Shown here: piece by piece, positions 25,696 to 52,788 of the stretch | Position numbering within the stretch: position 1 is the stretch's first letter | Layout: the number at the start of each line of letters is the position of its first letter | DNA from: a virus | Lineage: Duplodnaviria > Heunggongvirae > Uroviricota > Caudoviricetes | IMG/VR virus record: IMGVR_UViG_3300031867_003838 | Location: 44,671-108,670 of that record | DNA: 64,000 nt | Direction: 5' to 3' (one strand) | The notes under the pieces: generated by a model | The model's input: the letters and a program-made list of their open reading frames with translations, nothing else | Told to the model about the DNA's origin: nothing | The model's database searches: none | Position numbers and translations under genes: made by a program

Positions 25696-25909
25696 AGAAT
25701 TTGGTTCGCCAGATAAGCACATCCATGAGAATGGAAAGATTCATCTGGTTAGTTATCACAGCTATATATGCTTTGATAAGAGCGAAATTGGAAGTTTGCC
25801 TGATGCTGAGAGTACGGCCCTTGGCTCTCTGGCTCTGCTCGTACCCGACGGGGTTGTGTATTCACTGACTGCCGACGGGTGGAAACCTGTAGGAGACAGC
25901 AATGATTAA
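25685..25909 (+). CDS. Hypothetical small protein
   Basis: 74 aa ORF overlapping its neighbours by a few nucleotides. Confidence 0.35.
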   Translation: MAYKEFGSPDKHIHENGKIHLVSYHSYICFDKSEIGSLPDAESTALGSLALLVPDGVVYSLTADGWKPVGDSND

Positions 25910-26210
25910 AGAAGCAAACATTGACGAGTTAGCCTTACTATTAGCGATTAGCAATTCAAGGGCCGGTGGCGGCAGTGGATCCGTCACAGAATCGCAAGTT
26001 AAAGGCGTAGTCGAAGAATACTTGGCAAAACACACAGCAACCACTGATGCAGCCGGCGTCATTAAGATTGGCAGTGGCATCAAGGTTGACGAGGACGGCG
26101 TTGCCTCGATTGACGAGGTGATGCTCACAGATATGGTCGCCGATCTGCTCGAACAGCTTACTGTCGAGATTACAGACGACGAGATTAATTCACTTTGGGG
26201 AAACGGCTGA
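25902..26210 (+). CDS. Small fibre-like protein with conserved C-terminal ITD.E...W motif
   Basis: RBS TAGGAGACAGCA ATG. C-terminus VEITDDEINSLWGNG parallels the C-termini of 26295..27179 and 32794..33366. Confidence 0.45.
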   Translation: MIKEANIDELALLLAISNSRAGGGSGSVTESQVKGVVEEYLAKHTATTDAAGVIKIGSGIKVDEDGVASIDEVMLTDMVADLLEQLTVEITDDEINSLWGNG

Positions 26211-26243
26211 TATCCAGCCTTTCTTATATATTACATTAACCAA

Positions 26244-26276
26244 AGCAGGCATAAGCCTGCTTAATTTTATTTTATT
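26244..26276 (+). terminator. Terminator hairpin (aagcaggc-ataa-gcctgctt + T-rich)
   Basis: Perfect 8-bp stem followed by aattttattttatttt. Confidence 0.55.
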
Positions 26277-26294
26277 TTATAGGAGGACAAATAT

Positions 26295-27179
26295 ATGTCT
26301 ATTACTTATGCAAGTTTACAAACCCTTCAGAAGTTCCAGCAGGAAGTTGATTCTCGTTACGCAAAGAAGTTTACCCTTGGCGTAGCAAAACTGGCTACCG
26401 CTACTAGCGGATATGCTGCATCTTACAAGATCACCCTCGACGGCACTCAGGTCGGCGAAACCATCAACATCCCGAAGGACTTCCTTGTTAAGTCCGCGAC
26501 TGTTGAAACTTGCGCTACAGCTGATACACCGGTTACCGGCCTTGCAGTTGGCGACAAGTACATCGACTTCGTGGTTAACTCTGTTGAAAACGATGACACG
26601 GCTTCCCATATCTACCTTCCGGTTCAGGATCTCGTAGATATCTACACATCCGGCAACGGTGTTAACGTTTCCGCTGGCAACGTTATCTCCGCAGTTGTTG
26701 ATTCTAGCAACGCTAACGGTCTGTCCGTTGGTGCTAACGGCCTTGCTATGGCTACAGTTGTTGCTTCCACCTCTGGCGTTGGCGGATCTAACGGTGCTAT
26801 GACAGCTGCTCAGGCTGAAAAGCTTGCTGGTCTTGACAACTATAGCGAAGGCAATGGTATTGATATCACAAACCGCGTTGTGTCTGTTGATATTGATTCC
26901 ACGAACGCTAACGGCCTTGCTACTACGCAGGATGGTCTGAAGATCGGTCTTGCTGATGCATCTCACAATGGTGCGCTCAGCTCTACTGATTGGAGTAACT
27001 TCAATACGGCTTATAGCCGCAGCGTTGCGACTCCGACTGGTGACGGAAACGTTATCACAGCCATCGGCATTGACTCTACGACAAAGGATATCACGGTTAC
27101 TAAGGGCATCACTGCTCTTCAGGCATCCGACTTTGTTGCTATTACAGATGCAGAAGTTACTGCCCTTTGGGGTGCTTGA
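26295..27179 (+). CDS. Fibre-like structural protein, probably highly expressed
   Basis: Strong RBS TAGGAGGACAAATAT ATG. Flanked by terminators on both sides. Codon usage is markedly biased (ggt/gct/gtt/aac/cgt) relative to its neighbours. C-terminal FVAITDAEVTALWGA motif. The internal segment is homologous to the frame upstream of 32794. Confidence 0.6.
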   Translation: MSITYASLQTLQKFQQEVDSRYAKKFTLGVAKLATATSGYAASYKITLDGTQVGETINIPKDFLVKSATVETCATADTPVTGLAVGDKYIDFVVNSVENDDTASHIYLPVQDLVDIYTSGNGVNVSAGNVISAVVDSSNANGLSVGANGLAMATVVASTSGVGGSNGAMTAAQAEKLAGLDNYSEGNGIDITNRVVSVDIDSTNANGLATTQDGLKIGLADASHNGALSSTDWSNFNTAYSRSVATPTGDGNVITAIGIDSTTKDITVTKGITALQASDFVAITDAEVTALWGA

Positions 27180-27195
27180 TATTGACTTAATCTCG

Positions 27196-27226
27196 GCGCT
27201 GAGCTTTTGCTCAGCGCCTCTTTGAT
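27196..27226 (+). terminator. Terminator hairpin (ggcgctgagc-tttt-gctcagcgcc + tcttt)
   Basis: 10-bp perfect stem. Confidence 0.55.
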
Positions 27227-27241
27227 GGAGAGCCGAATACA

Positions 27242-29686
27242 ATGAAATTAATAGATGAAGAAGGAATTATAAAATTACGGAATTTAATAAAGAGTGATAT
27301 CCAAGAAGTGAGGGATGAAATTCCAGATTTTCCAAAAGATGCATATCCAATTGAGGGAAGCCATAATCCGATTGAATCTGGCGGTGTATATGATGCATTG
27401 GCAGATAAGCAGGACGTTCTTACATTTGATAATACACCTACTGCAAACAGCGAGAATCCTGTAAAAAGCGGCGGTGTTTATCAAGTTGTAACTGGCAAAC
27501 AGGATCGTCTGACATTTGATGAAGTGCCAACGCTTGGAAGCCAGAACATGGTTCGTTCCGGCGCGATTGCTCTGGCTCTCAATAATAAAAACGACATGGC
27601 AACTCCAGTTGATACGATCTCATCGTCTGTTGATAATCCAGTGAAGTCTAGCGCGATTTATGAGGCTCTTCAAGGTAAACAGGATACATTAACTTTCGAT
27701 GCTGTACCGACTGAAGGGAGTGATAATGTTGTTAGCAGTAATGGTATTTATGAGGCGTTAAGCCATGCAGGAGGAACGCCTGATTGGAATCAAGATGACA
27801 GCAATGGTGTTGGATATATCAAAAATAGAACACATTATATAGAGTATACATTCTCTGAAAAATTAATTGATGCAAACACCATTGATTGGAATGATAGTTC
27901 AACATCAACCACTATTGGCGGCTTATCTTATAAATTGATTTATACATTGTCGTCAAATATAAAGGACGCGTTGAGGACTACAGGAAAATTCAGAGTTTCA
28001 TTTGGGAGCAAATATGCAATAGCCAGTTCGACATATAGTTCCAATGCATACAGGACAGCCGTCGAAGATCTTGGTTTGTATATTATAACCACATCTTCCA
28101 CTATTGATGTTTATGTCAATTGGAAATCGCCTTCACAGCTTTTAACAATTGAGAAAGTTATAAGTGAGACATATCATAAGTTGGATAATAATTATCTAGA
28201 TATTTCAACAACACCGACTTCTGGAAGTGTGAAACCAATTTCGTCTGGTGCTGTATATACAGTTTTGCAAGATACGGCAGGTATGCCAGACTGGTGGCAA
28301 GACGACAGCACGCAAAGAAATTATATAAAACATAGAACTCATTATACAACATATGAATGGTCATTATATAAAAGCAGCACTCTCACAAATTCATTTAGTG
28401 ACACGTATACCAGTAATAATAAAACTTATTACAAACATTTTTCTGGTACTGGCAGTTCCTATGCGATTAGTGCCGGCACTATGTGTAAAGTAAATTATCT
28501 TGGCAAAACTTGTCAGGCTTACTTCTATATGATAACTCAGTATGGTAGTGGCAGAGATGGAGTTTATGAGCTTAATGCAAGTGACATAGGATTTATTGCT
28601 CATCTTTCATATGAACGTGATATATATACATTTTCTATTTATACATCTACTCAAAATGATACTTCTACGTTTCAGATTTATCGTGCGACAAATGAAAGCG
28701 TCGTAAAATTACCACAAAAATATATAGACACAGCAAGTAGTATTTCAGAGTTTGATAATAGACCTGTTCCAGCAAATGTCGTATATACCGCTTTACAGAA
28801 TGTAGGCGGGGTTTCTGATTGGGATCAGAATAATTCTCAAGAGAATGATTATGTTAAAAATAGAACGCATTATTCAGTTCCTGTTTGGACTACAGTTTTA
28901 GATGATACGCTCAATTATACTACAGTTACTTATGTTTATAATGGTGTTACATATTATCGTAATTATTATGGAGCCAATATGGGTAATTTTGTAACTAGAG
29001 GCAACAGATTTAGAATTATATATAATTCATTGACCTATATAGGTGATATTGTCTATTCCAATGGAGTATATATATTAGATGCATCAAGTATAGGCATTCT
29101 TCTACGAGTAACGCATTCTGATATTATGTATTCGTTTTATGCGTACACTCCAATCAGTAACAATAGTTCACTTTTTATATTGGATATAATGACAGATGAG
29201 AACATCACCAAACTTCCAAACAAATATCTTGATCTTGCGGCAGAACCTCAACAAAACGGCGTACAACCAATTACAAGTGGTGGTGTTTATGACGCAACCG
29301 TAGGCAAAGAGGATGTCGAGAATAAAGTTACACAAATTACAAGTAATTCAACTGACATCGAGTATCCTTCTGCTCTGGCCGTTTGGAAGCTATTCAATGA
29401 TCTAAATCGCAGAATTGCTAGATTAGAGGCTGAGCTTGGTGGTGGCACATCTGCTATTGTCGAAGACAATATTCTTGAAGTGTTTAATGGAGAAGAGAAT
29501 GATAATATTCTTGAATTGGATGATCGGTCGTACGTCGACGAAAACAATATTTTGAACTTTATAAACAGTTCTTCAACTGCATCAGTGGATAATAATATAC
29601 TAACAGATGACAGTATCTCAGTCGACAATGGGATACTCAATGTACCTAATGCAACAGTAGATGATTCAATGATAGATTTAGGATAA
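27242..29686 (+). CDS. Tail fibre protein with short fibre repeats
   Basis: 814 aa. Repeated units NP(V/I).SGGVY.AL..KQD.LTFD..PT.GS.N.V.S, as seen in phage tail fibres. Confidence 0.55.
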   Translation: MKLIDEEGIIKLRNLIKSDIQEVRDEIPDFPKDAYPIEGSHNPIESGGVYDALADKQDVLTFDNTPTANSENPVKSGGVYQVVTGKQDRLTFDEVPTLGSQNMVRSGAIALALNNKNDMATPVDTISSSVDNPVKSSAIYEALQGKQDTLTFDAVPTEGSDNVVSSNGIYEALSHAGGTPDWNQDDSNGVGYIKNRTHYIEYTFSEKLIDANTIDWNDSSTSTTIGGLSYKLIYTLSSNIKDALRTTGKFRVSFGSKYAIASSTYSSNAYRTAVEDLGLYIITTSSTIDVYVNWKSPSQLLTIEKVISETYHKLDNNYLDISTTPTSGSVKPISSGAVYTVLQDTAGMPDWWQDDSTQRNYIKHRTHYTTYEWSLYKSSTLTNSFSDTYTSNNKTYYKHFSGTGSSYAISAGTMCKVNYLGKTCQAYFYMITQYGSGRDGVYELNASDIGFIAHLSYERDIYTFSIYTSTQNDTSTFQIYRATNESVVKLPQKYIDTASSISEFDNRPVPANVVYTALQNVGGVSDWDQNNSQENDYVKNRTHYSVPVWTTVLDDTLNYTTVTYVYNGVTYYRNYYGANMGNFVTRGNRFRIIYNSLTYIGDIVYSNGVYILDASSIGILLRVTHSDIMYSFYAYTPISNNSSLFILDIMTDENITKLPNKYLDLAAEPQQNGVQPITSGGVYDATVGKEDVENKVTQITSNSTDIEYPSALAVWKLFNDLNRRIARLEAELGGGTSAIVEDNILEVFNGEENDNILELDDRSYVDENNILNFINSSSTASVDNNILTDDSISVDNGILNVPNATVDDSMIDLG

Positions 29687-29698
29687 GGAGTTGTTAAT

Positions 29699-30898
29699 AT
29701 GCCACAAAATATTATTCAAGGTGTAAAAGTAGATGGTACCATCTACAAATATGATTATGAAAGTCTGGAGAACCTTCCAGACCCGGAACTGCCATCAGCT
29801 ACGGCAAGTGATGAAGGGAAAGCACTTGTGATCAACTCTACCGGTGATCCGGCGTGGAAAACACCCGCGTCTGGCCTGCCGTCAGCTACGGCAAGTGATG
29901 AAGGAAAAGCGCTTGTGGTCAATTCCACCGGTGATCCGGCGTGGAAAACACCCGTGTCTGGCCTGCCGTCATCTACAGCGAGCGATTCAGGGAAAGCACT
30001 TATGGTCAATTCCACCGGTGATCCGGCATGGTCAGCAATCCCGTCGGACTTACCTGCCCATGTTTCCAATGACAATGGTAAAGCCCTTGTGCTTAACAGT
30101 ACAGGAAATCCAGCCTGGCGAGATATCCTTCCAAAATATTCACCGCAAGATGCAGGAAAGGTTCTTGTTCTTGGATCATCAGAACCAGGAGGGAGCGGAA
30201 ATGAAGGACCTCAGTGGGGCAGTGCACTTCCGACTGGTTCTTCTATCGGATTTGCACTGGTGATCGACTCGACAAGGAAACCGGCATGGAAAGATCTGAA
30301 ATATCCTGCCTGTGGTTCCCAAGATAGGGGAAAGACACTTGTGGTTAATACGACAGGTGAACCTGTCTGGAGCACTCCAAGTGGAGCACTCCCGACCCTT
30401 GGATCTCATGATGAGGGAAAGGCTCTGGTCGTTAATGATAGTGGCCGTGTAGCATGGGCCGAAGTACTGCCGACATGTGACACCCCCGATAGTGGCAAGG
30501 TACTACGAGTCAATTCAACTGGTAATGCGGCATGGAGTAATATGTCTGATGTATTAGTGTGTGATAGTACCGACGCAGGGAAAGCACTCGTGGTTAACCC
30601 GTCAGGTAAACCGGTGTGGGAAGAACTTCTTCCGACACATGATACCAGTTATGATGGATCTGATGCAGGTAAAGTACTTACGGTGGCTACTAATGGTTCA
30701 CTTACCTGGGAAGAAGGAGGAAGCGGCGGCCTGTCACTCCCGGACCCAAGCGACACTAATGAAGGGGATGTTCTGAAGGCTGATGGGTCTGGTGCTTATT
30801 CTTGGGGAAGTCTTCTTCCAGTTTATGATACGTCTGATGACGCGGGAAAAGTGCTCACGGTTACATCGAGCGGGCTCCGCTGGAACAGTCTGTCGTAA
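29699..30898 (+). CDS. Repeat protein (about 12 copies of a ~29-aa motif ..D.GK.LVVN.TG.P.W...LP)
   Basis: 399 aa. The first three repeats are near-identical at DNA level. Confidence 0.5.
   Translation: MPQNIIQGVKVDGTIYKYDYESLENLPDPELPSATASDEGKALVINSTGDPAWKTPASGLPSATASDEGKALVVNSTGDPAWKTPVSGLPSSTASDSGKALMVNSTGDPAWSAIPSDLPAHVSNDNGKALVLNSTGNPAWRDILPKYSPQDAGKVLVLGSSEPGGSGNEGPQWGSALPTGSSIGFALVIDSTRKPAWKDLKYPACGSQDRGKTLVVNTTGEPVWSTPSGALPTLGSHDEGKALVVNDSGRVAWAEVLPTCDTPDSGKVLRVNSTGNAAWSNMSDVLVCDSTDAGKALVVNPSGKPVWEELLPTHDTSYDGSDAGKVLTVATNGSLTWEEGGSGGLSLPDPSDTNEGDVLKADGSGAYSWGSLLPVYDTSDDAGKVLTVTSSGLRWNSLS
29789..30049 (+). repeat. 3 x 87-bp tandem repeat (about 90 percent identical), each encoding LPSATASDEGKALV.NSTGDPAWKTP.SG
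   Basis: Units start at 29789, 29876 and 29963. Confidence 0.85.
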
Positions 30899-30930
30899 TA
30901 AACAACCAAACAAACAAAAGGAGAAAACCA

Positions 30931-32673
30931 ATGACTTTGGAAATTTTAGTGAACCACTATCAGGAAAATGAATCAATCGTAGAACGCTTCTTTTCATCCC
31001 TTGCCATGCAGAGGGGTGTGGAGTTCCGGGTTATGCTTTGCAGTGACGGGGGTGTGAGACTGCCCCCCGATCTTTTTTGTAAGTTCCAATTTGAAATTAC
31101 CTACCAGTACCTTCCCCACACCGGTGTGTGCCATACGAGGAACGTCATGCTGGAAAAGGCGACAGCTGATTATCTGATGTTCTGCGATGTGGATGACTGT
31201 TTTTCTTCCCCGTATGGGCTTAGCAGTCTGATGGCTGCAGCTGAGAAGTCGCGTGCGGACGTAATCGGATCGCCGTATCAGTGCGAAAGGCTCATAAACG
31301 GAAAATATGAGTACGCTACCTATAAGAACGACACGATCCGCGTCCATGGGAAGATCTTCAGGAGAGCGTACCTGACTGAGAACCACATCCGTTTCCCGGA
31401 TGAACTGGAAACGAGCGGCGACATGTCTTTCCTGTGGCTCACCTATGCGTTGACGGACAGAATCGTTTGGGTTCCTGAGAACTTCTACATCTGGAAGTGG
31501 AATCCGGACTCAGTGACCAGGGCTGATCCGTACAGCCATGTGATGAATTATGATCGGACGCTCAGGTGTTATGAGCTTTTGGCGAAGGATCTTGTGAGAA
31601 GGAAGCGGGGGGATCTGTTCCAGAATCTGGTGTCGACAACGATTTCTATGATTTATGTGGATATGACGCATCCGAGATGGAGACAGGCACCAAAGGAGTA
31701 TCAGGAGAGGGCGCGGAAAGCTGTCTGCGGTTATCTGTCCGAGTACTATGAGTTTTATGCGTCCGTAGATGAGAATTACAGGAAAAGCAAGTACCTTCTC
31801 ATGCTGAACTATAAGAATTTCCAGGGATTTTCTGATCCTTTTGAAAAGATTGATGAGTGGGCGCATTCTTTACTTCCTGCAGCCGATCAACCCAAAGGTA
31901 ATGGAGAAGAGAAAAGAGAAGAAGGCAGCGTCCTCATCATCGGCTATGGTGTCGTCGGTTCCAATCTGGCCAAGGAGTTGAGTCCTCTAAACCCCGAAAC
32001 CTATGATAAATACAAGGAAATCGACACACGGACAGCCGACAAATACAAAGTCGCCTTCATCTGTGTGGACACACCGGCGACTGGTGATTCGGACTGTGAC
32101 ACGACTGAAGTAAAGAACGCGATCATGGAGAATGAAGCACTTATATATGTGGTGAAGAGCACAGTTCTCCCCGGCACAACGGAGAGATTGATGCGTGAGA
32201 CAGGAAAGCACATAATCTTCAGTCCGGAGTATTATGGCGGCACGCAGCACTGCAATAACTATAATTTCGATTTTACAATCCTTGGCGGTGAGAAGGATGC
32301 CTGTATCAAAGTCGTTCAAGTATTACAGAAAGTATATGACGCTCGTCATCAATTTAGGATTACTGATTCGAAGACAGCAGAACTTGCGAAATATATGGAG
32401 AATAGCTATCTTGCAATGAAGGTATCATTCTGCAATCAGTTTTACGAAATCGCAAAGAAAGCCGGTGTGTGCTACGAAGAACTCCGTGAGCTGTTCGTTC
32501 TTGACCCACGAGTGGAACCATCACATACATTTGTGTACAGGGATCACCCTTGGTGGAGCAGCCATTGTTTAAATAAAGATGTTCCTGCTATTGCAAATGC
32601 TTATGACGCGAAATTATTACAAGACGTGATTGATTACAACACTGAATGTAAGACGGGCGATAGGGTATTATAA
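30931..32673 (+). CDS. Fusion protein: family-2 glycosyltransferase (N-terminal) + UDP-glucose/GDP-mannose dehydrogenase-like domains (C-terminal, truncated)
   Basis: GT2 signatures: VMLCSDGG and DxD motif FCDVDD. Rossmann motif IIGYGVVGS. UGDH central-domain match ENSYLAMKVSFCNQFYEIAKKAGV...LDPRV...SSHCLNKD. The region is much more GC-rich than the surrounding genes. The UDP-sugar-binding C-terminal domain is absent. Confidence 0.6.
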   Translation: MTLEILVNHYQENESIVERFFSSLAMQRGVEFRVMLCSDGGVRLPPDLFCKFQFEITYQYLPHTGVCHTRNVMLEKATADYLMFCDVDDCFSSPYGLSSLMAAAEKSRADVIGSPYQCERLINGKYEYATYKNDTIRVHGKIFRRAYLTENHIRFPDELETSGDMSFLWLTYALTDRIVWVPENFYIWKWNPDSVTRADPYSHVMNYDRTLRCYELLAKDLVRRKRGDLFQNLVSTTISMIYVDMTHPRWRQAPKEYQERARKAVCGYLSEYYEFYASVDENYRKSKYLLMLNYKNFQGFSDPFEKIDEWAHSLLPAADQPKGNGEEKREEGSVLIIGYGVVGSNLAKELSPLNPETYDKYKEIDTRTADKYKVAFICVDTPATGDSDCDTTEVKNAIMENEALIYVVKSTVLPGTTERLMRETGKHIIFSPEYYGGTQHCNNYNFDFTILGGEKDACIKVVQVLQKVYDARHQFRITDSKTAELAKYMENSYLAMKVSFCNQFYEIAKKAGVCYEELRELFVLDPRVEPSHTFVYRDHPWWSSHCLNKDVPAIANAYDAKLLQDVIDYNTECKTGDRVL

Positions 32674-32793
32674 AAGCAAAATTTTGTAATTAACACGGCC
32701 GACTCAGACGGAAATACAACTCACCTTTATCTGCTTGTCAGTGATCTGATTGACACATACACGGCTGGGGACGGCATCACGATTTCAAACAAT

Positions 32794-33366
32794 GTGGTCA
32801 GCGCCAAAATTGTAACCGCAAATGGCCTGACTATCGACGCGACAAATGGCATTAGTTTCACACATCCCGCAAGCGGAGTGACGCCTGGGACTTACACACA
32901 AGTAACTACCGATGCGCAGGGTCATGTTACCACTGGTGCAAATCCTAGCACTATTTCAGGCTACGGGATTCTTGATGCATACACTAAGACGGAAGTGGAT
33001 ACCGCCCTTTCTGGCAAAGTAAGCACTGAACAGGGCAAAGGATTATCCGCTAACGACTTTACCAATACATTGAAGACAAAGCTCGAAGGGATTTCGGCAG
33101 GCGCAGAAGTCAACGTTAACGCAGATTGGAATGCTTCATCAGGCGACGCGCAGATTCTAAACAAACCGACAACAGTTGCGGGATATGGTATTACGAACGC
33201 GTACACCAAGACAGAAATTGATTCTGCATTGTCAGGCAAAGTCAATACCGAATCTGGTAAAGGACTTTCATCTAATGACTTCACAACCGCGCTAAAAACA
33301 AAGCTTGAAGATATCGAGCCAATTACCGACGCTGAAATCATTGCCATTTGGAGCGGAAAATCTTAA
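32794..33366 (+). CDS. Fibre-repeat protein (GKGLS.NDFT repeats), probably the C-terminal remnant of a disrupted fibre gene
   Basis: No ATG and no SD; the ORF track starts it at a GTG. The reading frame is open back to the TAA of the upstream gene (32671-32673), and the upstream in-frame sequence is homologous to 26295..27179. C-terminus ITDAEIIAIWSGKS. Confidence 0.4.
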   Translation: MVSAKIVTANGLTIDATNGISFTHPASGVTPGTYTQVTTDAQGHVTTGANPSTISGYGILDAYTKTEVDTALSGKVSTEQGKGLSANDFTNTLKTKLEGISAGAEVNVNADWNASSGDAQILNKPTTVAGYGITNAYTKTEIDSALSGKVNTESGKGLSSNDFTTALKTKLEDIEPITDAEIIAIWSGKS

Positions 33367-33377
33367 AAGGAGGCACT

Positions 33378-35174
33378 ATGAAATACTTAACCTATGATGG
33401 TTTAAGAACATTAACCAATTTAATTAAAGGCGACATAAACGGTATTTCAGGTAATGTCATCCCTACATTCGAAGAAGTATACGACAACCTGATAAACCTT
33501 GACGAAGACACGAGCGGCCATACAGAAGGGAGCTTCCAATCCGCTGAAGGTCTTCACGGCCTTAGATATATCAACGGCGCATTCGAAGTCGCCGTTCCTA
33601 CATATACACCCGTCACTCCTTCGTCTGGCGACAACCCAAGCGAAGAAGGATGGTACGAAGAAACAAGTGGTACGTACTCTCCCACCGATGATACTACACC
33701 GACACAAGACAAAACTTATTACGAGAAAACGGTATCATGGACGGAGGTACAGGAAAAAGCCGTTGGAGAGATTGAAGTGATCCCAGAATTTTCGCAGAAA
33801 ACCTATACAGGTTCTGCACAGACCGTAGTTACTGCTGGTGAAGGAACGGGTGACATGTATTACTATTTGTCCGATTCTTCTACGGCTCCGGCAAGCAACG
33901 CGTATTCAACGTCACTTCCGACTCTGACGAATGCGACAGCCAATACGTATTACTTGTGGTATTACTCAGGAAAAACGAGTCAATATAAAGCAACAACGCC
34001 TACGTATGTCGTATGGCCTGGCGCTGCGGATCACATGCTGATGCAGAAAGCAACACCGACTATTACAAAGTCAACTAGTTCTGTATCATTAGACAGTTCA
34101 AATATGACACAAGATGTAACTATTACTGTTGTAACTGACGGAAGTCTAACTGTGTCTTCTTCAGATGTTACAATTGCAACTGTTTCCAATCTTTCTGGTA
34201 GCACCTATCGAATTTCTGCGGTTGGGGGTGGTAGTTGTACAATTAATATCAGTGCTACGAATGGGGTAAACTTTAATTTTTTGAGCGACTCTATTTCAGT
34301 TACTTGTACACTTATAAAATCGTTAAATGATTCTACTTGGTCTGAGATTTCTCAAGCTTCATCATCTGGTGTAGCCAATTCATATTGGAATGTAGGTGAC
34401 TGTAAGGAGATCACATTAAATGGTACGGTCGGTACTTTGGCACTTAGTAACAAGAAACTGTGCGTGTACATTCTTGGGTTTGATCACAACTCAGCGATTG
34501 AAGGTAGTGGTATTACTTTCGGCGGATTCAAGACGGCTGTTACGGGTGGAAAAGATGTGTGTTTGATTGATGGTAATTATAATTCATACACTACTAACGG
34601 TAGCAAATGGTTTAATATGAACCACTGGGGTAATTATAACTATGGTGGCTGGGCTGCAAGTGATGTGCGTTACGACGTTCTTGGAAGCACAAACAGTGCA
34701 CCATCTTCATATGGTAGTGCGAGAACAACATCCTCAACTGGTAATAATCCAACTAACACATGTGCTACAAGCCCAGTCAGTAACACACTGATGGCCGCAC
34801 TTCCAGAAGATTTAAGGGCTGTGATGAAACCAATCACAAAGTATACAGATAACAAAGGTAATAGTTCAACTGCTGCTGCAAATGTAACTACAACCATTGA
34901 TTACTTGCCGTTAATGTCTGAGTACGAAGTATTTGGTTCTACTTCTTACGCTAATACTAATGAGGCAACTAATCAGGCAAGGTATGCTTACTACGCCAAC
35001 AACAACAGCCGTGTGAAGTATGGGCATAGTTCAACTGGGTCTACCGCCCATTGGTGGCTTCGTTCTCCTGGCCGTTCGTACGCGAACCGCTTCGTGCGTG
35101 TTCACACTGACGGCAGTGTCTCCAACAGCCCCTCTAGGCTTTCGCGTGGCCTGGCGCCGCTCATTTTGATCTGA
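33378..35174 (+). CDS. DGR target protein 1: BIG2-like Ig domains + C-terminal lectin-like variable domain (WWLRSP...GLAPLILI)
   Basis: RBS AAAGGAGGCACT ATG. Paralog of 35536..37356. The C-terminal ~40 codons form variable repeat VR1. Confidence 0.65.
   Translation: MKYLTYDGLRTLTNLIKGDINGISGNVIPTFEEVYDNLINLDEDTSGHTEGSFQSAEGLHGLRYINGAFEVAVPTYTPVTPSSGDNPSEEGWYEETSGTYSPTDDTTPTQDKTYYEKTVSWTEVQEKAVGEIEVIPEFSQKTYTGSAQTVVTAGEGTGDMYYYLSDSSTAPASNAYSTSLPTLTNATANTYYLWYYSGKTSQYKATTPTYVVWPGAADHMLMQKATPTITKSTSSVSLDSSNMTQDVTITVVTDGSLTVSSSDVTIATVSNLSGSTYRISAVGGGSCTINISATNGVNFNFLSDSISVTCTLIKSLNDSTWSEISQASSSGVANSYWNVGDCKEITLNGTVGTLALSNKKLCVYILGFDHNSAIEGSGITFGGFKTAVTGGKDVCLIDGNYNSYTTNGSKWFNMNHWGNYNYGGWAASDVRYDVLGSTNSAPSSYGSARTTSSTGNNPTNTCATSPVSNTLMAALPEDLRAVMKPITKYTDNKGNSSTAAANVTTTIDYLPLMSEYEVFGSTSYANTNEATNQARYAYYANNNSRVKYGHSSTGSTAHWWLRSPGRSYANRFVRVHTDGSVSNSPSRLSRGLAPLILI
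35042..35166 (+). repeat. DGR variable repeat VR1
   Basis: 125 nt aligning with the template repeat at 37983..38107. 21 of 24 differences fall on template adenines. Confidence 0.6.
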
Positions 35175-35535: not shown

Positions 35536-37356
35536 ATGAAATATTTAGATTATAACGGCTTGACAGTTCTGTCAAATGCGATCAAAGGTGATTTGTCTAG
35601 TTTTACAGATACCGTGATCCCGACATTTGAAGAAGTGTATAGCAATTTGTTTACAATCGACCAGGATATTGAGGAACACAAGGAAGGTGAAGTCACTGAT
35701 CCTGACGGGATTCATGGCATTCGCTACGCAGATGGCGCTTTTCAGGTGGCGAATCCGACTTACGCAGAGGCTTCGCCCGCATCAGGAAGCAACCCGAAAG
35801 AATTAGGATTGTATGAATTGGTTAATGGCAACTATGTTCTAACTGATGATGAGGAAATTGTTTCTGGCAAAACTTATTACACAAGAAATGATTCATGGGA
35901 TGATGTAATCACGAAACCTGCTGGAAGTGTTACGACAACACCTTCATTCTCTCAGAAGACTTATAACGGATCTGCACAGACTATTGCTACTGCTGGCGAG
36001 GGAACTGGCACGATGTATTATTGTCTGTCAAACTCTTCTACTGCTCCGGCGCGTTCAAGCTATAGCACGACGTTGCCGACATTGACTGACGCGACAGATG
36101 CCACATATTATCTGTGGTATTATGCTGGCGCGTCTTCAAGCTATAAGGCTACTACGCCTGACTATGTAACATGGATCGGATCTGCAAATAACATGCTTAT
36201 GCAGAAAGCCGAACCGACTATCACAAAATCGAAATCATCTGTTTCACTCAGCACTGCGCAAATGTCCGATGATGTGACAATCACTGTGGTGACAGATGGC
36301 ACATATACGGTTACTTCGTCAGATACATCTGTTGCGACTGTGACAAACACATCTGGCAATACCTATCATATTGCTGTTGTGGCAAATGGTACGTGTACGA
36401 TCAATATTGATGTGGCAGAAGGATCGAACTATGCAGCAGCGTCAGACACTATTTCAGTTAGTTGTGCGTTGGTGAATAATACACTTGATAACAATGACTG
36501 GTCTACTATATCCGCGATTTCTGCGGCAGGTACTGGTAGTACATATTGGTCTGTTGGTGACTGCAAAGCGATTACACTCAATGGTACTGTTGGCACACTG
36601 AGTTTAAGTAATGTAACAACTTATGTTTATATTCTTGGATTCAATCACAACTCAAGTGTAGAAGGAACTGGCATTACGTTTGGTGGATTTAAAACTGCGG
36701 CATCTGGCGGTACAGATGTATGCTTGGTTGATAGTAAATATAATTCAAATGCTGGAAATAGTGGTGGCAAATATTTCCAGATGAACCATTGGGGATCATC
36801 GTCAAACCCGTACAATACTAACTATGGTGGCTGGGCGGCTTGCGATATGAGATATGACATCCTTGGTAGTACCGATTCACAACCGACTCCATATGGTAGC
36901 ACAAAGACTACATCCGCTACTGGTGTAAATGCAAGTAGTACATGCGCAACTAATCCAGTAGCAAATACCTTAATGGCAGCGCTTCCATCAGATCTTCGTG
37001 CGGTGATGAAACCGATTACTAAGTATACGGATAATAAGGGTAATTCAAGTACAGCGGCCGCTAACGTGACGGCTACTATTGATTATCTTCCGCTTCCGGC
37101 AGAAAAGGAAATATTTGGGTCAATTAGTAATGCAAATACAAATGAGGGTACAAACCAGGCACAGTATGCTTACTATGCTAACAACAATAGCAAGGTGAAG
37201 TATCGGCATGACGGCACGTCAACAGCCGCCCGTTGGTGGCTTCGTTCTCCTTACCGTTCGTACGCGTCCCACTTCGTGTCTGTTTACACTAGCGGCATTG
37301 TCAACTTCAACGGCTCGGGCAATTCGTTTGGCCTGGCGCCGCTCATTTTGATCTGA
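35536..37356 (+). CDS. DGR target protein 2 (paralog of target 1)
   Basis: RBS TAAGGAGGAACT ATG. Same domain order as target 1. The C-terminus carries VR2. Confidence 0.7.
   Translation: MKYLDYNGLTVLSNAIKGDLSSFTDTVIPTFEEVYSNLFTIDQDIEEHKEGEVTDPDGIHGIRYADGAFQVANPTYAEASPASGSNPKELGLYELVNGNYVLTDDEEIVSGKTYYTRNDSWDDVITKPAGSVTTTPSFSQKTYNGSAQTIATAGEGTGTMYYCLSNSSTAPARSSYSTTLPTLTDATDATYYLWYYAGASSSYKATTPDYVTWIGSANNMLMQKAEPTITKSKSSVSLSTAQMSDDVTITVVTDGTYTVTSSDTSVATVTNTSGNTYHIAVVANGTCTINIDVAEGSNYAAASDTISVSCALVNNTLDNNDWSTISAISAAGTGSTYWSVGDCKAITLNGTVGTLSLSNVTTYVYILGFNHNSSVEGTGITFGGFKTAASGGTDVCLVDSKYNSNAGNSGGKYFQMNHWGSSSNPYNTNYGGWAACDMRYDILGSTDSQPTPYGSTKTTSATGVNASSTCATNPVANTLMAALPSDLRAVMKPITKYTDNKGNSSTAAANVTATIDYLPLPAEKEIFGSISNANTNEGTNQAQYAYYANNNSKVKYRHDGTSTAARWWLRSPYRSYASHFVSVYTSGIVNFNGSGNSFGLAPLILI
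37226..37348 (+). repeat. DGR variable repeat VR2
   Basis: Aligns with the template repeat. 19 of 20 differences are at template adenines (AAC to TAC/TCC/CAC/TTC/GGC and similar). A GC-rich hairpin lies about 35 nt downstream (37386-37420). Confidence 0.75.
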
Positions 37357-37951: not shown

Positions 37952-37982
37952 AACAGGAGGAATAAAGGGTGCATTTCTGTAT

Positions 37983-38107
37983 TACCGCCAATTGGTGGCT
38001 TCGTTCTCCTAACCGTTCGAACGCGAACAACTTCGTGAATGTTAACACTAGCGGCAGTGTCAACAACAACAACTCGAACAATTCGAATGGCCTGGCGCCG
38101 ATCATTT
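37983..38107 (+). other. DGR template repeat (TR)
   Basis: Non-coding copy of the target 3' ends. It reads through in the VR reading frame and is adenine- and AAC-rich (aac cgt tcg aac gcg aac aac ... gtc aac aac aac aac tcg aac aat tcg aat). It has no start codon and no downstream hairpin. Confidence 0.75.
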
Positions 38108-38162
38108 ATAAACGTGTCGCAATTTCATAAGACATATAAATGAGGAGAAATGTTTCCCGTGG

Positions 38163-39467
38163 TTGCAATGCCACAAAAGTGCTAATGTACGTCAGGCACG
38201 GACGCTTCTTGCATGGTGGAGAATGGGTACTACCTCCATTTCATGTGCTGTGACTACGCATCGTGAAGGTATCCCCTACAACAGCGATGTGGCGTTAGCG
38301 AATAATTTAAAAATGACCAGTATTGAACGACATGAAAGGCGTTATCAACGACGTAAACAGAAAAGAGAAGAACGTCGCGAAGAACGCTTAAGTAAAATTA
38401 AATCAGTGGATGAGATCTTCGCATTTAACAAGATGTTTAAATACGGCGAACAGTGCTGTAGAGGTGTAATGTGGAAACATTCTGCGCAGATGTTTAAACT
38501 GCATCTGTTCTCGCGCACTGCTTCCAACATCAAGAGAGCGAAGAATGATTACAAACCAAAGCCGCTTTCAAAGTTTACGATCAGTGAACGCGGTAAAACA
38601 AGACAGATTGAGGCGCCGCATATTGATGACAGACAAATCCAGAAAGCGCTTGTGCATGAAGTGCTTTTGCCTGTGTATCTGCCACATATGATCTATAACA
38701 ATGGCGCGTCACTAAAGGGTAAAGGCTTACACTTTTCACAGGCACAACTTGACAAGATGCTTCACAGGCATATCAATCGGTATGGTATGAATGGGTGGAT
38801 CATCACGGCTGATATGAAGGGTTTCTTTCCGAATGCGGATCGCAACGTCGTAAAAGAGAATCACAAGATGATCAAGAATGAGCAAGTGCGCAATATCCTC
38901 GACACGATTACAGACATCGGAAGCGGCGACAGAGGACTACCACTTGGCGTTGAGCCGTCACAGGTTGAAATGATCGCACTTCCCTCTCCGCTCGACAACT
39001 TTATGTGTTGCCAGATGGGATTAAAGGGCTTCGGTCATTACATGGACGATTATCATATCATCGTGCCGCCCGACAGAGATCCGAAAGAGATTCTCGAAGT
39101 GTTTATTGAAAAGGCAGCAAGCATCGGAATTACCGTGAGTCGTGATAAAACAAGAATTATTCCATTCGGTAAGCCTTTTAAGTTCTGTAAGATGAAGAGA
39201 ATATTTGACAAGGACAGGATCATTCATCGCGGATGCAGAGATAGCGTAAAACGGCTCCGCACTAAGATTAAGAAGTTTTCAAAAACGGAAATGAACATGG
39301 AGGATATTGCAACCTCGATTGGTAGCTCATTATCTTACTTCGGGATAACGGATGATCATTACACGGTGTTGAAACTCAAGCGGCTATTTTATAAAGAATT
39401 TGGTTTTACATGTGAGGAATTACAAAGGAGAAATAAAGATGGAGTATATTTGCCACAGGCCGTATAG
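38163..39467 (+). CDS. DGR reverse transcriptase
   Basis: RT motifs in order: RQIEAPHIDDRQIQKAL, ITADMKGFF, LPLGVEPSQ (the DGR-type GxxxSQ signature) and GHYMDDYHII (YxDD). Start uncertain: the track uses TTG at 38163; ATGs at 38223 and 38313 are alternatives. Confidence 0.8.
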   Translation: MQCHKSANVRQARTLLAWWRMGTTSISCAVTTHREGIPYNSDVALANNLKMTSIERHERRYQRRKQKREERREERLSKIKSVDEIFAFNKMFKYGEQCCRGVMWKHSAQMFKLHLFSRTASNIKRAKNDYKPKPLSKFTISERGKTRQIEAPHIDDRQIQKALVHEVLLPVYLPHMIYNNGASLKGKGLHFSQAQLDKMLHRHINRYGMNGWIITADMKGFFPNADRNVVKENHKMIKNEQVRNILDTITDIGSGDRGLPLGVEPSQVEMIALPSPLDNFMCCQMGLKGFGHYMDDYHIIVPPDRDPKEILEVFIEKAASIGITVSRDKTRIIPFGKPFKFCKMKRIFDKDRIIHRGCRDSVKRLRTKIKKFSKTEMNMEDIATSIGSSLSYFGITDDHYTVLKLKRLFYKEFGFTCEELQRRNKDGVYLPQAV

Positions 39468-44296: not shown

Positions 44297-45478
44297 ATGA
44301 CTGATTTGAATGAACTTCTGAAGTATGGTATACTATCAGAAGAGGAAATCCACAAACAATTAAAAATGAAGAAAACTGAATCAATGCTTAAGGAGCATCC
44401 TCATCCGATCACGCAGCTCTCGAACGGTCGATGGCAGACTTACTACGACGATCCTGTAACTGGCAAGAAGATTGAAGTTAAACTTGCTACCAGGGATAAG
44501 GTTATAGACCGGCTGTACGACTTGTATTACAAGAAGAGTTACACGTTTGAACAACTCTTCCCAGAATGGCTTGAGTACAAGAGAAGCATCACGGCAAGTC
44601 CTAACACGATCACGAGGCATCAGCAGCATTACAACAAGTATCTCTCTGGCAGATCGGTCGTTACGAAAGATATCCGTCACATCAAGAAGACGGAGCTCAA
44701 CTCATTCTGCAACTCACTGGTCAAGGATTTCGCCCTATCCTCCAAGGAGTGGATGAACGTCAAGACGGTGATTAACGGAGTGTTCGACTATGCTGTCGAC
44801 AAAGAGATTCTGGGATTCAATCCGATGTCTCATGTGAAGATCACGGTCAAGTACCGGCAGGTCAACCGCAAGCCGTCTTCGACACAGTGCTTCAACACGA
44901 ACGAACTGGCGGATTTTAAGTCGTACATGTACGGGAAATATGCGGAGACGAAGGATTCCAGTTTCGCATCTTCCATCGTGCAGATGCTGACTGGACTCAG
45001 GATCGGGGAGCTTGCCGTGATTAAGTGGGCAGATGTGGACTACGAAGCGCATCAGCTTCATGTGGTAAGAGAAGAAACAAAGGTATTTGATACTGGCGAA
45101 TTCGAAGTCGTACCGCACACGAAGGGCAATCGTGACCGCTTCGTCGTACTTGTTCCGGAGGTAGAATCTCTGCTGAAAGAAGTGTACGCAAATGAAAAAC
45201 GTCACGGGGAATATGTCTTCACCCGTGACGGTGAGCGCCTTACCGCTAGGCAGCTCGCATATGTGTATAAAAAATATGCACGTAATACAAAGTCCGACTT
45301 CAAGAGTTCACACAAGGCTAGGAAGACCTACGCCAGTATGCTCCAGAAAGCCGGTGTTCCCATCGAAGTGATCCGTGAAATGCTCGGTCACAAGGATCTG
45401 GCGACTACTTTCGCGTATCTGTTCAGCACAGAAACGCCGGAAGAAACCTACGACAGCGTCGTGACGGCCATGTCTTAA
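44297..45478 (+). CDS. int: Tyrosine site-specific integrase
   Basis: C-terminal catalytic region HKARKTYASMLQKAGVPIEVIREMLGHKDLATTFAYL (R...HxxR...Y pattern). RBS GGAGGAATAT ATG. Confidence 0.75.
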   Translation: MTDLNELLKYGILSEEEIHKQLKMKKTESMLKEHPHPITQLSNGRWQTYYDDPVTGKKIEVKLATRDKVIDRLYDLYYKKSYTFEQLFPEWLEYKRSITASPNTITRHQQHYNKYLSGRSVVTKDIRHIKKTELNSFCNSLVKDFALSSKEWMNVKTVINGVFDYAVDKEILGFNPMSHVKITVKYRQVNRKPSSTQCFNTNELADFKSYMYGKYAETKDSSFASSIVQMLTGLRIGELAVIKWADVDYEAHQLHVVREETKVFDTGEFEVVPHTKGNRDRFVVLVPEVESLLKEVYANEKRHGEYVFTRDGERLTARQLAYVYKKYARNTKSDFKSSHKARKTYASMLQKAGVPIEVIREMLGHKDLATTFAYLFSTETPEETYDSVVTAMS

Positions 45479-52129: not shown

Positions 52130-52324
52130 TTATATTGCGGATAACTGGGTCGTCCGGGGTAGACGTGTTATCCGCGTAATCCCCTTGCGGTTCAGGCTGT
52201 TCCGAGTGCCGCCAATTATATGCCCAGTGTGCTATTTTTTAAGGTGGTTTCGGTTCCACCACTTCAGGCAAAGATTGATCGCGCAAAGCGTGAAATCTTT
52301 TCGTGTTGCTGACGAAAAGATTAA

Positions 52325-52396
52325 CTGGGGATCTGCGAATCGAACGCAGGATGTAGCAGTCAAAGTGCTATGCCTTAACCACTTGGCGAATCCCCA
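52325..52396 (-). tRNA. tRNA-Gln (anticodon UUG)
   Basis: Full 72-nt cloverleaf on the minus strand: TGGGGAT T C GCC-AAGTGGTTAA-GGC A TAGCA-CTTTGAC-TGCTA CATC CTGCG-TTCGATT-CGCAG ATCCCCA G. Confidence 0.8.
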
Positions 52397-52788
52397 AAGA
52401 AAGGAGCTGACCCTAACATCTCTCACGCCTAGGTCAGCACGGTTAATACCAGGCGATGTGTTATTCCCGTGCCAAAAATAAAGGATTATGAAACAGAGTG
52501 TGCTATTACGCCAAAGCATCCACGCCGACATATCTTGGGGAATATATAGGTATATTACATGTCGGTACTATCCTATATACCATGGTCGTGCCAAACCACA
52601 CACCCAAGTTGTGAGATCCATACCGTTAAGCGATGCCTTTCGCATAGGTACGTACAATGTACTTATCGGTCATGCCTGTAAATCATGTCCTGTCATCCCA
52701 CACACGGAATTCGCATGAAACGATTCCGTCCATCGCGATGCACTCTTTAGATGATGGCTGCTTCTAAGCCTACATCCTCTATTTCAAA

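Follow-up and report, generated by a model that had tools for sequence, protein, structure and literature searches.

Among the glycosyltransferases that phages carry, the serotype-converting gtr genes of P22 and the Sf phages are related to the case described here, and mycobacteriophage virions are glycosylated by phage-encoded glycosyltransferases whose genes lie beside structural genes. The wall-teichoic-acid glycosyltransferases TarS and TarP of S. aureus and RmlT of L. monocytogenes form a further point of comparison; the tarP gene adjoins an integrase (PMC9650247). In Xenorhabdus, glycosyltransferases located in hypervariable fibre regions of tailocin and prophage loci have been proposed to provide self-resistance through receptor modification (bioRxiv 10.1101/2025.04.19.648921).

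The window, which is the whole 64-kb stretch of DNA that was analysed, originates from an integrase-bearing phage of about 150 kb (151-kb genome) of ruminant-gut Bacillota. The integrase gene, located at positions 44297-45478 of the window, indicates a temperate lifestyle, and the host is probably a Gram-positive member of the rumen Clostridia. The tail-fibre region of this phage is mosaic. We consider it quite probable that a three-gene block replaced the start of a fibre gene, that a recent and probably untranslated remnant of that gene was left behind, and that the enzyme encoded within the block most likely acts on a cell-wall glycopolymer.

With regard to the ancestral layout, several relatives carry two paralogous fibre genes, of 294/296 and 341 amino acids, next to each other. 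Three bovine or rumen contigs and one 1.4-kb contig carry the 341-aa orthologue in intact form, immediately downstream of the counterpart of the 294-aa fibre gene, and the gene order in the relatives is 296-aa fibre, 341-aa fibre, DUF6273, DUF6273 and reverse transcriptase. The intact 341-aa gene has its own AGGAGG ribosome-binding site and its own ATG. Related phages lacking the insertion were predicted to show the ancestral fibre gene, and this gene was indeed found. In the window, the left neighbour of the insertion is the intact 294-aa paralogue (26295-27179; the fibre-region features described here are all on the plus strand), the product of which exhibits 87% identity to L013 9021-9896 (tblastn). 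The DNA at 26187-27172 is 82% identical to the relatives L013, L014 and L016 (blastn). In all three, homology to the window stops at 27172 and restarts at 32681, downstream of which more than 10 kb is collinear at 90-94% identity. This collinear DNA includes a DUF6273 gene (33378-35174; 598 aa when read from the ATG at 33378), the strong AGGAGG ribosome-binding site of which is located within the last codons of the fibre remnant. A fourth relative, L006, aligns with the window at about 95% DNA identity from 32681 on, with unrelated sequence upstream; the last 26 residues of its upstream gene product are 100% identical to the end of the 294-aa fibre.

The segment at 27173-32680 (5508 bp) is therefore absent from the relatives, as seen by blastn of L013, L014 and L016 against the window. 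It is only for this whole block that presence in one phage and absence between the same flanking genes holds, L006 included. Both junctions were inspected at base level and are resolved to within a few bases. The left crossover is located in the DNA coding for the C-terminal ITDAEVTALWG motif of the 294-aa fibre, and the right junction lies 8 nt past the stop codon of the enzyme gene, at codon 114 of the second fibre gene. The block displaced 445 bp (L013 9896-10340), which run from the final codons of the 296-aa gene through the intergenic terminator and the ribosome-binding site to codon 113 of the 341-aa fibre gene, and include the ATG of the latter. No other part of the window encodes the N-terminal 113 residues of the 341-aa fibre. 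At its left end, the insert contains a strong terminator-like hairpin (27195-27218; 10-bp stem with 8 GC pairs, followed by a T-run), the sequence of which is unlike that of the hairpin at the equivalent position in the relatives. As the donor context of the block was not found, a one-step replacement is indistinguishable from an insertion followed by a deletion of about 400 bp, and the block may have arrived in either way. Judging from these alignments, the event is one of foreign DNA landing in a fibre paralogue, with removal of the 5' part of the latter. The original prediction had placed a moron inside a fibre paralogue; the landing site was correct, but the unit is the three-gene block of 5508 bp rather than the enzyme gene alone.

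It is highly unlikely that the junction is an assembly chimera of two co-occurring phages, one carrying the repeat-protein/GT-UGDH pair and the other the intact fibre gene. The contig is metagenomic and of MEGAHIT style, the fibre region is mosaic with related strains in similar samples, and the junction was absent from the IMG/VR and JGI metagenome contigs searched. Nevertheless, a Logan assembly produced by a different pipeline (L008, SRR9036512), which may share its source sample with the window, contains a 3037-bp stretch spanning the junction that is 100% identical, and neither junction shows a repeat common to both sides that could mislead an assembler. Furthermore, the fibre remnant carries 30 lineage-specific codon changes and has diverged as much as the 10 kb that follow it, which places it in this genome rather than in the sampled intact strains.

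The replacing block encodes an 814-aa fibre protein, a 399-aa beta-hairpin-repeat protein and a 580-aa GT2/UGDH-like enzyme. The 814-aa fibre gene (27242-29686) has a low GC content (36%), and its product exhibits N-terminal NPVxSGGVY-type repeats, three internal repeats of about 170 aa and partial similarity (42-47%) to a 583-aa fibre at the same position in the relative L005. The 399-aa protein (29699-30898) comprises about 13 beta-hairpin repeats (DxGKxLxVxxxGxxxW, period of about 29 aa; DNA repeats D1 and D2) and is 72% identical to an L005 protein; in its AlphaFold2 model, which is of low confidence (pLDDT 59), every repeat contains paired strands. The presence of a sugar-modifying enzyme in a fibre module had been regarded as unusual. 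It is not a one-off, as the repeat-protein gene lies directly 5' of the GT(-UGDH) gene in 9 of the 12 loci checked (the matches in L017 and L018 being near-identical), and the pairing persists down to 49% enzyme identity. A gene resembling that of the 814-aa fibre was present in the flanking DNA of 4 of these 12 loci. In the closest relatives, L005 and L177, the pair closes the fibre module, just before the lysis genes.

The enzyme gene (30931-32673) is a complete gene of bifunctional type, preceded by an AGGAG ribosome-binding site of its own and ending in a native TAA stop. Residues 1-316 correspond to a GT2 (GT-A) glycosyltransferase, residues 317-330 to a disordered linker and residues 331-580 to a UGDH-like NAD-binding and central domain. 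The predicted fusion of a GT2 domain, including its FCDVDD (DxD) motif, with a UGDH-like module lacking the C-terminal domain was confirmed by three Pfam domains above their cut-offs: Glycos_transf_2 (PF00535; 33.7 bits versus 23.3, residues 6-128), UDPG_MGDP_dh_N (PF03721; 33.0 versus 27) and the UDPG_MGDP_dh central domain (PF00984; 52.2 versus 25.4). The NCBIfam profile for nucleotide sugar dehydrogenases (TIGR03026) scored 102.7 bits, below its cut-off of 189.8, and was covered from position 74 to 295 of 413. D86, D88 and D89 of the DxD motif are invariant in 26 homologues. The dehydrogenase module has retained every element of the UGDH catalytic set (GYGVVG, KST, PE, K487/N491 and C546-L-N-K-D) and lacks the UDP-binding domain. 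Its SHC546LNK549D550 segment is aligned with gghClpKD in the solved dehydrogenase 4r16, and in the 26-homologue alignment D550 is invariant and C546 and K549 reach at least 90% conservation. PF03720, the C-terminal UDP-binding domain, was absent from the enzyme in Pfam searches, from all 26 aligned homologues and from all 80 IMG/VR loci with the dehydrogenase module (0/80), in which no more than 51 aa follow the module. The same architecture is found in more than 50 full-length homologues of 550-590 aa. As the domain is missing across a large family, its absence is neither a consequence of the event nor a truncation.

In terms of base composition, the enzyme gene had been described as far more GC-rich than its neighbours, a claim that finds little support: its GC content is 46.5%, compared with 50.5% for the upstream neighbour and 45.7% for the downstream remnant. 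The gene is in the top 6% of windows of its size (mean of the window 41.7%, sd 3.3% for windows of that size), and only its third-position GC stands out (54% versus 43% for the window). A consensus scan, which is a crude method, revealed neither a promoter-like site in 30898-30931 nor a terminator downstream of 32673. The gene begins 32 nt past the preceding ORF, with only a ribosome-binding site in between, and the enzyme is probably made late, together with the fibres.

The frame of the enzyme gene continues open past its TAA (32671-32673) for 230 codons with no frameshift, which raises the question of whether the enzyme and the fibre are joined. Homology to a fibre had been proposed to cross the stop codon, and this holds only on its downstream side. 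Taken alone, the 40 codons past the stop align with residues 91-126 of the 26295-27179 protein at 44% identity and 78% positives (E=4e-11), and the full 230-codon stretch matches the same protein with E=2e-13. In contrast, the last 40 residues of the enzyme gave no alignment with the fibre even at E<=100, and DNA homology starts at 32681, past the stop. N570 and K574 are invariant in 26 homologues, and beyond K574 most of them have tails of variable length, about 1 to 12 residues; therefore, the C-terminus of the enzyme is native and the stop is at its usual place. The in-frame insertion that had been proposed is thus contradicted by a native C-terminus and stop, and the fact that the enzyme and the 228 leftover codons share a frame is a 1-in-3 coincidence. 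A read-through product, which would be an 811-aa virion-borne glycosyltransferase-fibre fusion, is extremely improbable despite the single TAA between two ORFs of the same frame. Both release factors recognise UAA, the least leaky of the stops; here, it is followed by an A. No suppressor tRNA was found in the 64-kb window, in which only tRNA-Gln(ttg) and tRNA-Ser(gct) were detected. Moreover, the enzyme gene is followed by lysis genes and not by a fibre gene in L005 and L177, and the 12 full-length cluster members listed, like the relatives' contigs examined, have the fibre as a separate, intact gene. The junction is a recombination scar and not a conserved feature, and no relative has such a fusion. 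An in-frame ORF after a stop is not, in itself, evidence for read-through, and this deserves a warning for annotation.

What follows the stop is a 5'-truncated fibre gene (32681-33366) corresponding to codons 114-341 of the 341-aa orthologue. Its DNA is 94-95% identical to that of intact orthologues, and the post-stop translation exhibits 95% identity to P0111, an intact orthologue of 341 aa. The frame is still open, but the remnant lacks an ATG, a ribosome-binding site and half of the N-terminal block conserved between the paralogues. The first canonical in-frame start is the GTG at 32794-32796, on which gene callers base an ORF of 190 aa. As originally predicted, the start and Shine-Dalgarno scan revealed neither an ATG before this GTG nor a Shine-Dalgarno match in front of it. 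None of the in-frame candidate starts in 32674-33100 has such a match, compared with 20 of 22 called late genes (at least 4 nt, at 3-13 nt spacing), and the interval between TAA and GTG contained no promoter-like or terminator-like site in a scan. Relative to L014, the remnant shows a dS of 0.19 and an omega of 0.13, the omega of intact neighbours being 0.07-0.26, and the 30 codon changes seen only in the window comprise 21 synonymous and 9 non-synonymous ones. As this substitution pattern matches that of the intact neighbours, the truncation is recent. In the 90% cluster of the 341-aa fibre (25 members), 12 of the 15 listed members are full-length and intact (341-342 aa); other short members are on short contigs, and that of the window is the only one, among the members listed, shown to be truncated.

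Of the possibilities raised for the downstream ORF, the N-terminally truncated remnant fits best, read-through is unsupported and re-initiation would have to occur without a ribosome-binding site. A remnant that still works appears rather unlikely. Translation would re-initiate after the TAA of the enzyme gene, at the GTG or at a non-canonical codon, and yield a C-terminal fibre fragment of 190-230 aa that assembles via its conserved ITDAEIIAIW motif. The 230 open codons and the omega value against intact orthologues would fit continued selection, for example through low-level translation after enzyme termination. The C-terminal motif is common to three neighbouring fibre-region proteins and could be a docking element, and both ORFs are on the same transcript, since there is no terminator between them. 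However, the missing Shine-Dalgarno matches argue against this possibility, as does the gap of 121 nt between the stop and the GTG, which is an ordinary internal valine codon in intact orthologues. The deletion cuts into the block in which conservation between the paralogues is highest (P0111 residues 53 to about 170), and the truncated state is unique among the cluster members examined. Recency explains the low omega equally well, since dS equals that of the neighbouring genes. From these comparisons, the intact frame and low dN/dS of the remnant probably reflect recency rather than function. The remnant would thus be a young fragment, transcribed with the late operon and not efficiently translated, and the ORF of 190 aa that pipelines call as a 'gene' is probably no gene.

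With regard to the activity of the enzyme, its AlphaFold2 model (pLDDT 87.6) predicts a GT-A domain and a helical acceptor-binding subdomain with the same architecture as in TarS, TarP and RmlT. The top Foldseek matches in the PDB are TarS (5tz8 and 5tzk, E=5e-14), RmlT (8bz6, E=3e-13) and TarP (6h21, E=9e-12). The TarS matches extend over about 340 columns and give TM-scores of 0.61-0.63 when normalised to TarS 1-349; the second half of the enzyme matches UGDHs. The enzyme is likely a soluble two-domain protein that combines a TarS/RmlT/TarP-like glycosyltransferase with a dehydrogenase module. It may add a hexose or a hexuronic acid to a cell-wall glycopolymer seen by the linked fibres. Such a cell-wall glycopolymer is the most likely target, and its modification could result in receptor masking, self-immunity or protection of progeny phage. 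Glycosylation of the adjacent repeat protein itself seems less likely, although virion glycosylation would agree with late expression no less well than lysogenic conversion would. GT-A-fold phage DNA glycosyltransferases also match TarP structurally (bioRxiv 10.1101/2023.12.21.572611), so the fold does not fix the acceptor.

Accordingly, a target other than the host surface has to be weighed, either the 399-aa repeat protein and other fibre proteins or phage DNA, and we regard it as possible but doubtful. The tight pairing with the repeat protein and the location of the gene in the late operon, without a promoter or terminator of its own, are in favour of virion glycosylation. Many of the repeats contain Ser/Thr-rich stretches and N-x-S/T triplets, and the structural matches include CgT (5hea), a GT-A domain that extends protein-bound glycans. 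For DNA, stand-alone dehydrogenase modules adjoin TET-associated glycosyltransferases, and hexuronic-acid DNA modifications have been reported. On the other hand, teichoic-acid glycosyltransferases give the best structural matches, with coverage of the entire catalytic and helical acceptor region. Within the 64 kb of the 151-kb genome that were analysed, 10 replication-side ORFs were scanned and contain no TET, hydroxymethylase or methyltransferase genes, and the repeat-protein model is not good enough for exposed acceptor sites to be assessed.

The short dehydrogenase is fused to, or lies beside, glycosyltransferases of at least four families. We tentatively propose that rumen Bacillota phages could have, in the repeat-protein/GT2-mini-UGDH pair, a portable 'specificity plus modification' module. 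Its dehydrogenase half might then represent an uncharacterised enzyme class that oxidises a sugar held or already transferred by the partner glycosyltransferase, resulting in hexuronic-acid decoration of a fibre protein, of a cell-wall receptor or, in other phages, of DNA. If the fibre and the enzyme act on one cell-wall glycan, such cassettes would couple host recognition to receptor masking in phages of gut Gram-positive bacteria, and the short dehydrogenase would then be a new tool-like enzyme for sugar oxidation. The enzyme is the more useful lead of this locus, being a teichoic-acid-type glycosyltransferase that travels with fibre genes and is fused to a widespread, undescribed short UGDH. 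The value of the event itself lies in junctions resolved at this scale, in pre-insertion relatives that are in hand and in a fragment young enough to look selected.

Compared with known systems, the event is ordinary, textbook phage mosaicism with an unusually clean reconstruction. As in the mosaic exchange of tail-fibre and host-range cassettes, a receptor-recognition block is present in one lineage and absent in close relatives, with collinear flanks, sharp breakpoints, one crossover in a conserved motif-coding stretch and a 5'-deleted gene left behind. It differs in that the block contains a sugar-modifying enzyme besides fibres, and in that the right breakpoint lies just past a stop codon, in frame, thereby mimicking a read-through fusion. 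In contrast to a moron, the enzyme gene has no promoter and no terminator of its own in the crude scan. As to base composition, its overall GC content is not above that of its immediate neighbours, and its third-position GC is above that of the window. The GT-A and helical acceptor regions superimpose on those of TarS, TarP and RmlT (Foldseek E=5e-14 to 1e-11), and the DxD motif is shared, whereas sequence identity to these enzymes is only 13-18%. A UGDH-like module (331-580) takes the place of the C-terminal oligomerisation domains of TarS and TarP, and that of RmlT is absent as well. TarP is prophage-encoded, and the present enzyme is likewise soluble and phage-borne, but tarP is found beside an integrase gene, whereas the gene described here lies in a fibre module, paired with a repeat protein. 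With UDP-glucose/GDP-mannose 6-dehydrogenases (UGDH, TuaD and the UDP-ManNAc dehydrogenase 4r16), the enzyme shares the NAD-binding and central domains and the KST, PE, K...N and Cys-x-x-Lys-Asp motifs. In contrast to these, its family lacks PF03720 throughout, has an N-terminal Rossmann part about 35 residues shorter, and is fused to or located beside glycosyltransferases of several families. As in mycobacteriophage virion glycosylation, a glycosyltransferase is encoded among late structural genes, beside a candidate substrate protein, although the enzyme family and host phylum differ and fibre glycosylation is only a candidate here. The Xenorhabdus and gtr cases are Gram-negative and involve LPS and other enzyme families, whereas the present one is a GT2-dehydrogenase fusion, known from its sequence, in a probably Gram-positive host. 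Nevertheless, as in the Xenorhabdus loci, a glycosyltransferase is linked to fibre genes in a variable tail locus and moves with them, here in a temperate phage.

This analysis revealed an ordinary modular exchange at a phage tail-fibre locus, in which the glycosyltransferase/UDP-glucose dehydrogenase-like (GT-UGDH) gene at 30931-32673 closes a larger fibre cassette and, contrary to the original prediction, does not make up the whole insert. The predicted fibre homology after its TAA stop (32671-32673) was confirmed and goes far beyond chance expectation: on their own, the first 40 codons after the stop match residues 91-126 of the 294-aa fibre at 26295-27179 (44% identity, 78% positives, E=4e-11), and all 230 codons give E=2e-13 against this protein. 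The claim that the enzyme's last residues share this homology did not hold, as its final 40 residues give no alignment to the fibre. A tblastn match reaching into the enzyme end (GDRVL against GDKYI) was also rejected, no DNA homology being found before 32681.

A protein search with the post-stop translation identified P0111, a 341-aa protein with 95% identity over the whole query and 113 additional N-terminal residues. The 1.4-kb contig carrying its gene (L006) is ~95% identical to the window from 32681 into the next gene and unrelated upstream; the gene preceding P0111 ends in ...VTKGITALQASDFVAITDAEVTALWG and is therefore the orthologue of the 294-aa fibre gene. The 90% cluster of P0111 comprises 25 members, of which 15 were listed. 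Among the latter, 12 are intact (341-342 aa), including copies on contigs of 136-156 kb. Truncation was shown for the copy in the window alone; the remaining short members are on short contigs and were likely cut off by the contig ends. L013, L014 and L016, three further relatives recovered from gut metagenomes of bovine and other origin, share the gene order 296-aa fibre, 341-aa fibre, DUF6273, DUF6273 and reverse transcriptase. Phages lacking the insertion and retaining the ancestral fibre gene, as had been anticipated, are thus represented by L006, L013, L014 and L016.

With regard to the junctions, blastn gave the same breaks in L013, L014 and L016: homology stops at window position 27172 and restarts at 32681, which corresponds to codon 114 of the 341-aa gene, continuing for 4.6 to 10.7 kb at 90-94% identity. 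Therefore, 5508 bp (27173-32680) stand where the relatives have 445 bp, and the lost segment comprised a terminator hairpin, an AGGAGG ribosome-binding site, the ATG and codons 1-113. The 113 lost residues are encoded nowhere else in the window, the sole match being the paralogue, with 70% identity over residues 53-115. The right junction lies 8 nt past the enzyme's stop. The frame common to enzyme and remnant (32681-33366) is a coincidence with a prior chance of one in three. The motif ITDxE[IV]xx[LI]W[GS] terminates three ORFs of the fibre region (25902-26210, 26295-27179 and 32681-33366). The left junction (27172/27173) falls exactly within DNA encoding this motif, which may therefore provide a site of homologous crossover when fibre cassettes are exchanged.

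The right junction is also spanned by a second assembly produced with a different pipeline (L008; Logan, SRR9036512), which matches the window at 100% identity along the 700 aligned bp, encodes an identical 190-aa ORF and possibly derives from the same sample as the window. No repeats common to both sides of the junction were found, and exact junction 29- and 33-mers had no match in IMG/VR or JGI metagenome contigs.

The frame after the TAA is open to 33366, with a GTG at 32794 as its first canonical in-frame start, in agreement with the original prediction. No translation start signal was found for this remnant: a Shine-Dalgarno match, present in 20 of the 22 called late genes, is missing ahead of the GTG and of every other in-frame candidate up to 33100. 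Stop read-through, which had been proposed as one way of joining the enzyme to the downstream fibre repeats, is very unlikely, since a UAA codon with a following A makes a strong stop and the window contains no suppressor tRNA. Its two phage-borne tRNA genes, both on the minus strand, encode non-suppressor tRNAs: tRNA-Gln(ttg) at 52324-52397 and tRNA-Ser(gct) at 52788-52862. No terminator-like or promoter-like site was found between the enzyme gene and the remnant, so the two are transcriptionally contiguous. Compared with L014, the remnant shows a dS of 0.19 and an omega of 0.13, intact neighbouring genes ranging from 0.015 to 0.64 and from 0.07 to 0.26, respectively, and its window-unique codon changes comprise 21 synonymous and 9 non-synonymous ones. 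Almost all of the divergence between it and the sampled relatives thus accumulated while the gene was functional, so that the truncation must be recent unless the fragment is still in use. When tested for relaxed selection, the 37 codons before the GTG showed 6 non-synonymous and 7 synonymous changes, against 5 and 18 downstream, numbers too small for a conclusion. Since start signals are lacking and the breakpoint cuts midway through the block in which the fibre paralogues are best conserved, the remnant is probably a recent, essentially untranslated fragment; low-level re-initiation, which would keep the open frame in use, appears unlikely. A tblastn search of the remnant returned distant fibre-repeat matches only, none covering at least 80% of the query.

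The enzyme gene itself is complete. The predicted domains were recovered by Pfam, with Glycos_transf_2, UDPG_MGDP_dh_N and the UDPG_MGDP_dh central domain above cut-offs in the 580-aa ORF and no C-terminal UDP-binding domain, and the same three-domain architecture occurs in more than 50 homologues of 550-590 aa. In an alignment of 26 sequences, the C-terminal N570-x-x-x-K574 is invariant, while the tails past K574 are variable, spanning about 1 to 12 residues in most homologues. The window enzyme ends in NTECKTGDRVL, which conforms to this pattern, so the stop is native. Within 32605-32673, DNA similarity of the enzyme gene to its two closest relatives (L005 and L177) ends about 65 nt ahead of the stop codon. 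As the C-terminal tail is also closer to the more distant homologue P0004 than to these two, a further small mosaic patch within the gene is suggested. The gene was originally described as far more GC-rich than its neighbours, which is not the case: its GC content is 46.5%, compared with 50.5% for the upstream neighbour, 45.7% for the remnant and 41.7% for the window, and it is distinctive only in third-position GC (54% vs 43%).

The inserted block comprises, besides the enzyme gene, the genes for an 814-aa fibre and a 399-aa repeat protein. The 814-aa fibre gene, which has internal repeats, is well below the rest of the block in GC content (36%), so the block is itself mosaic. Three internal repeats of ~170 aa are encoded at 27815-28873, with the YIKNRTHY motif recurring 507 and 528 nt apart. 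The 399-aa protein consists of ~13 beta-hairpin repeats (DxGKxLxVxxxGxxxW); its AlphaFold2 model (pLDDT 59, pTM 0.22) was too poor for a fold search. Pfam, PHROGs and NCBIfam gave nothing informative for the 294-, 399- and 814-aa proteins. The repeat-protein and GT-UGDH genes are 85% identical at the DNA level to the pair in L005 and L177, where the pair comes last in the fibre module, ahead of a small membrane or holin-type gene. Of the 12 loci checked (which include the near-identical matches L017 and L018), 9 have a similar repeat protein immediately 5' of the GT gene, with enzyme identities down to 49%, and 4 have an 814-like fibre gene in the flanking DNA. A sugar enzyme within a fibre module, originally regarded as unusual, is therefore a recurrent arrangement. 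No close relatives of the 814- and 399-aa proteins, and hence no block donor, were found in IMG/VR, and 29600-33500 had no megablast match among 50,697 annotated phage records.

The window derives from a 151.7-kb metagenomic contig (ENA ERZ27256863 k141_412684), and its late operon carries fibre-type genes on the plus strand from 22.6 to 44 kb, preceded by two very large plus-strand ORFs (318-11657, 3779 aa; 12840-16676, 1278 aa). Downstream of the fibre operon are a diversity-generating retroelement, XkdX-like and lysis genes, and an integrase. The retroelement has two targets, as the 3' ends of both DUF6273 genes (33378-35174 and 35536-37356) contain variable repeats (35042-35166 and 37226-37348) matching one template repeat (37983-38107). 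The latter lies within a 53-aa DUF6273 fragment ORF (37969-38130), just upstream of the reverse transcriptase (RVT_1) gene at about 38163-39467. Nearly all mismatches occur at template adenines (AAC codons), and the layout is identical in L013 and L014. The tyrosine integrase (44297-45478, plus strand) directly follows the lysis region, hence the ~150-kb phage is probably temperate. The NrdD (anaerobic ribonucleotide reductase) gene (55626-58655, minus strand) is split by an intein with a LAGLIDADG-type domain.

The short dehydrogenase module of ~250 aa (31921-32670), which contains the NAD-binding and central domains and the catalytic cysteine, is widespread in phages and in Bacillota and Chloroflexota genomes (IMG/VR and GTDB loci L017-L176). 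None of 80 IMG/VR loci has the C-terminal domain, and 252 matches were confirmed in species genomes. The module is fused to or located beside GT2 enzymes and, in other phages, beside TET-associated (TAGT PF20691), GT32-type and GT4-type glycosyltransferases. In some phages (L002, 8001-9745, on the same contig as L034), GT2 (332 aa) and dehydrogenase (247 aa) are separate adjacent genes; the occurrence of both split and fused forms speaks for joint action of the two. Ruminant-derived genome bins of Mogibacterium, Ruminococcus and Oscillospiraceae carry full-length fusions, pointing to a Gram-positive bacterium of the rumen as host. A search of a limited literature collection yielded no description of a phage-borne GT-UGDH fusion or short UGDH, and the function of the short dehydrogenase is apparently undescribed.

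The AlphaFold2 model of the enzyme (pLDDT 87.6) shows two domains joined by a disordered linker (residues 317-330). Residues 1-316 superimpose on TarS, RmlT and TarP (E=5e-14 to 1e-11), including the helical acceptor region, and residues 331-580 match UDP-glucose dehydrogenases, retaining GYGVVG, KST, PE, K487/N491 and the catalytic C546-x-x-K-D, with a score under the NCBIfam cut-off. The cassette would deliver new fibres together with a glycan-altering enzyme. TarP, and the glycosyltransferases of Xenorhabdus tailocin loci, which lie in a hypervariable fibre region (bioRxiv 10.1101/2025.04.19.648921), suggest by analogy that the enzyme may modify the cell-wall polymer bound by the linked fibres, which could protect lysogens or keep progeny from sticking to debris. 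Glycosylation of the 399-aa repeat protein fits about as well, as the enzyme gene is tightly paired with that of the repeat protein and has no transcription signals of its own. For the enzyme family, DNA glycosylation is also possible: GT-A DNA glycosyltransferases likewise resemble TarP (bioRxiv 10.1101/2023.12.21.572611) and hexuronic-acid bases are described in the literature, but a scan of ten ORFs on the replication side showed no DNA-modification genes. TarS, RmlT and the prophage-encoded TarP are wall-teichoic-acid glycosyltransferases, and TarS and TarP have an oligomerisation domain, whereas UDP-glucose dehydrogenases have a UDP-binding domain. As the 580-aa enzyme has neither, it is akin to these known families yet departs from each in one defining feature.
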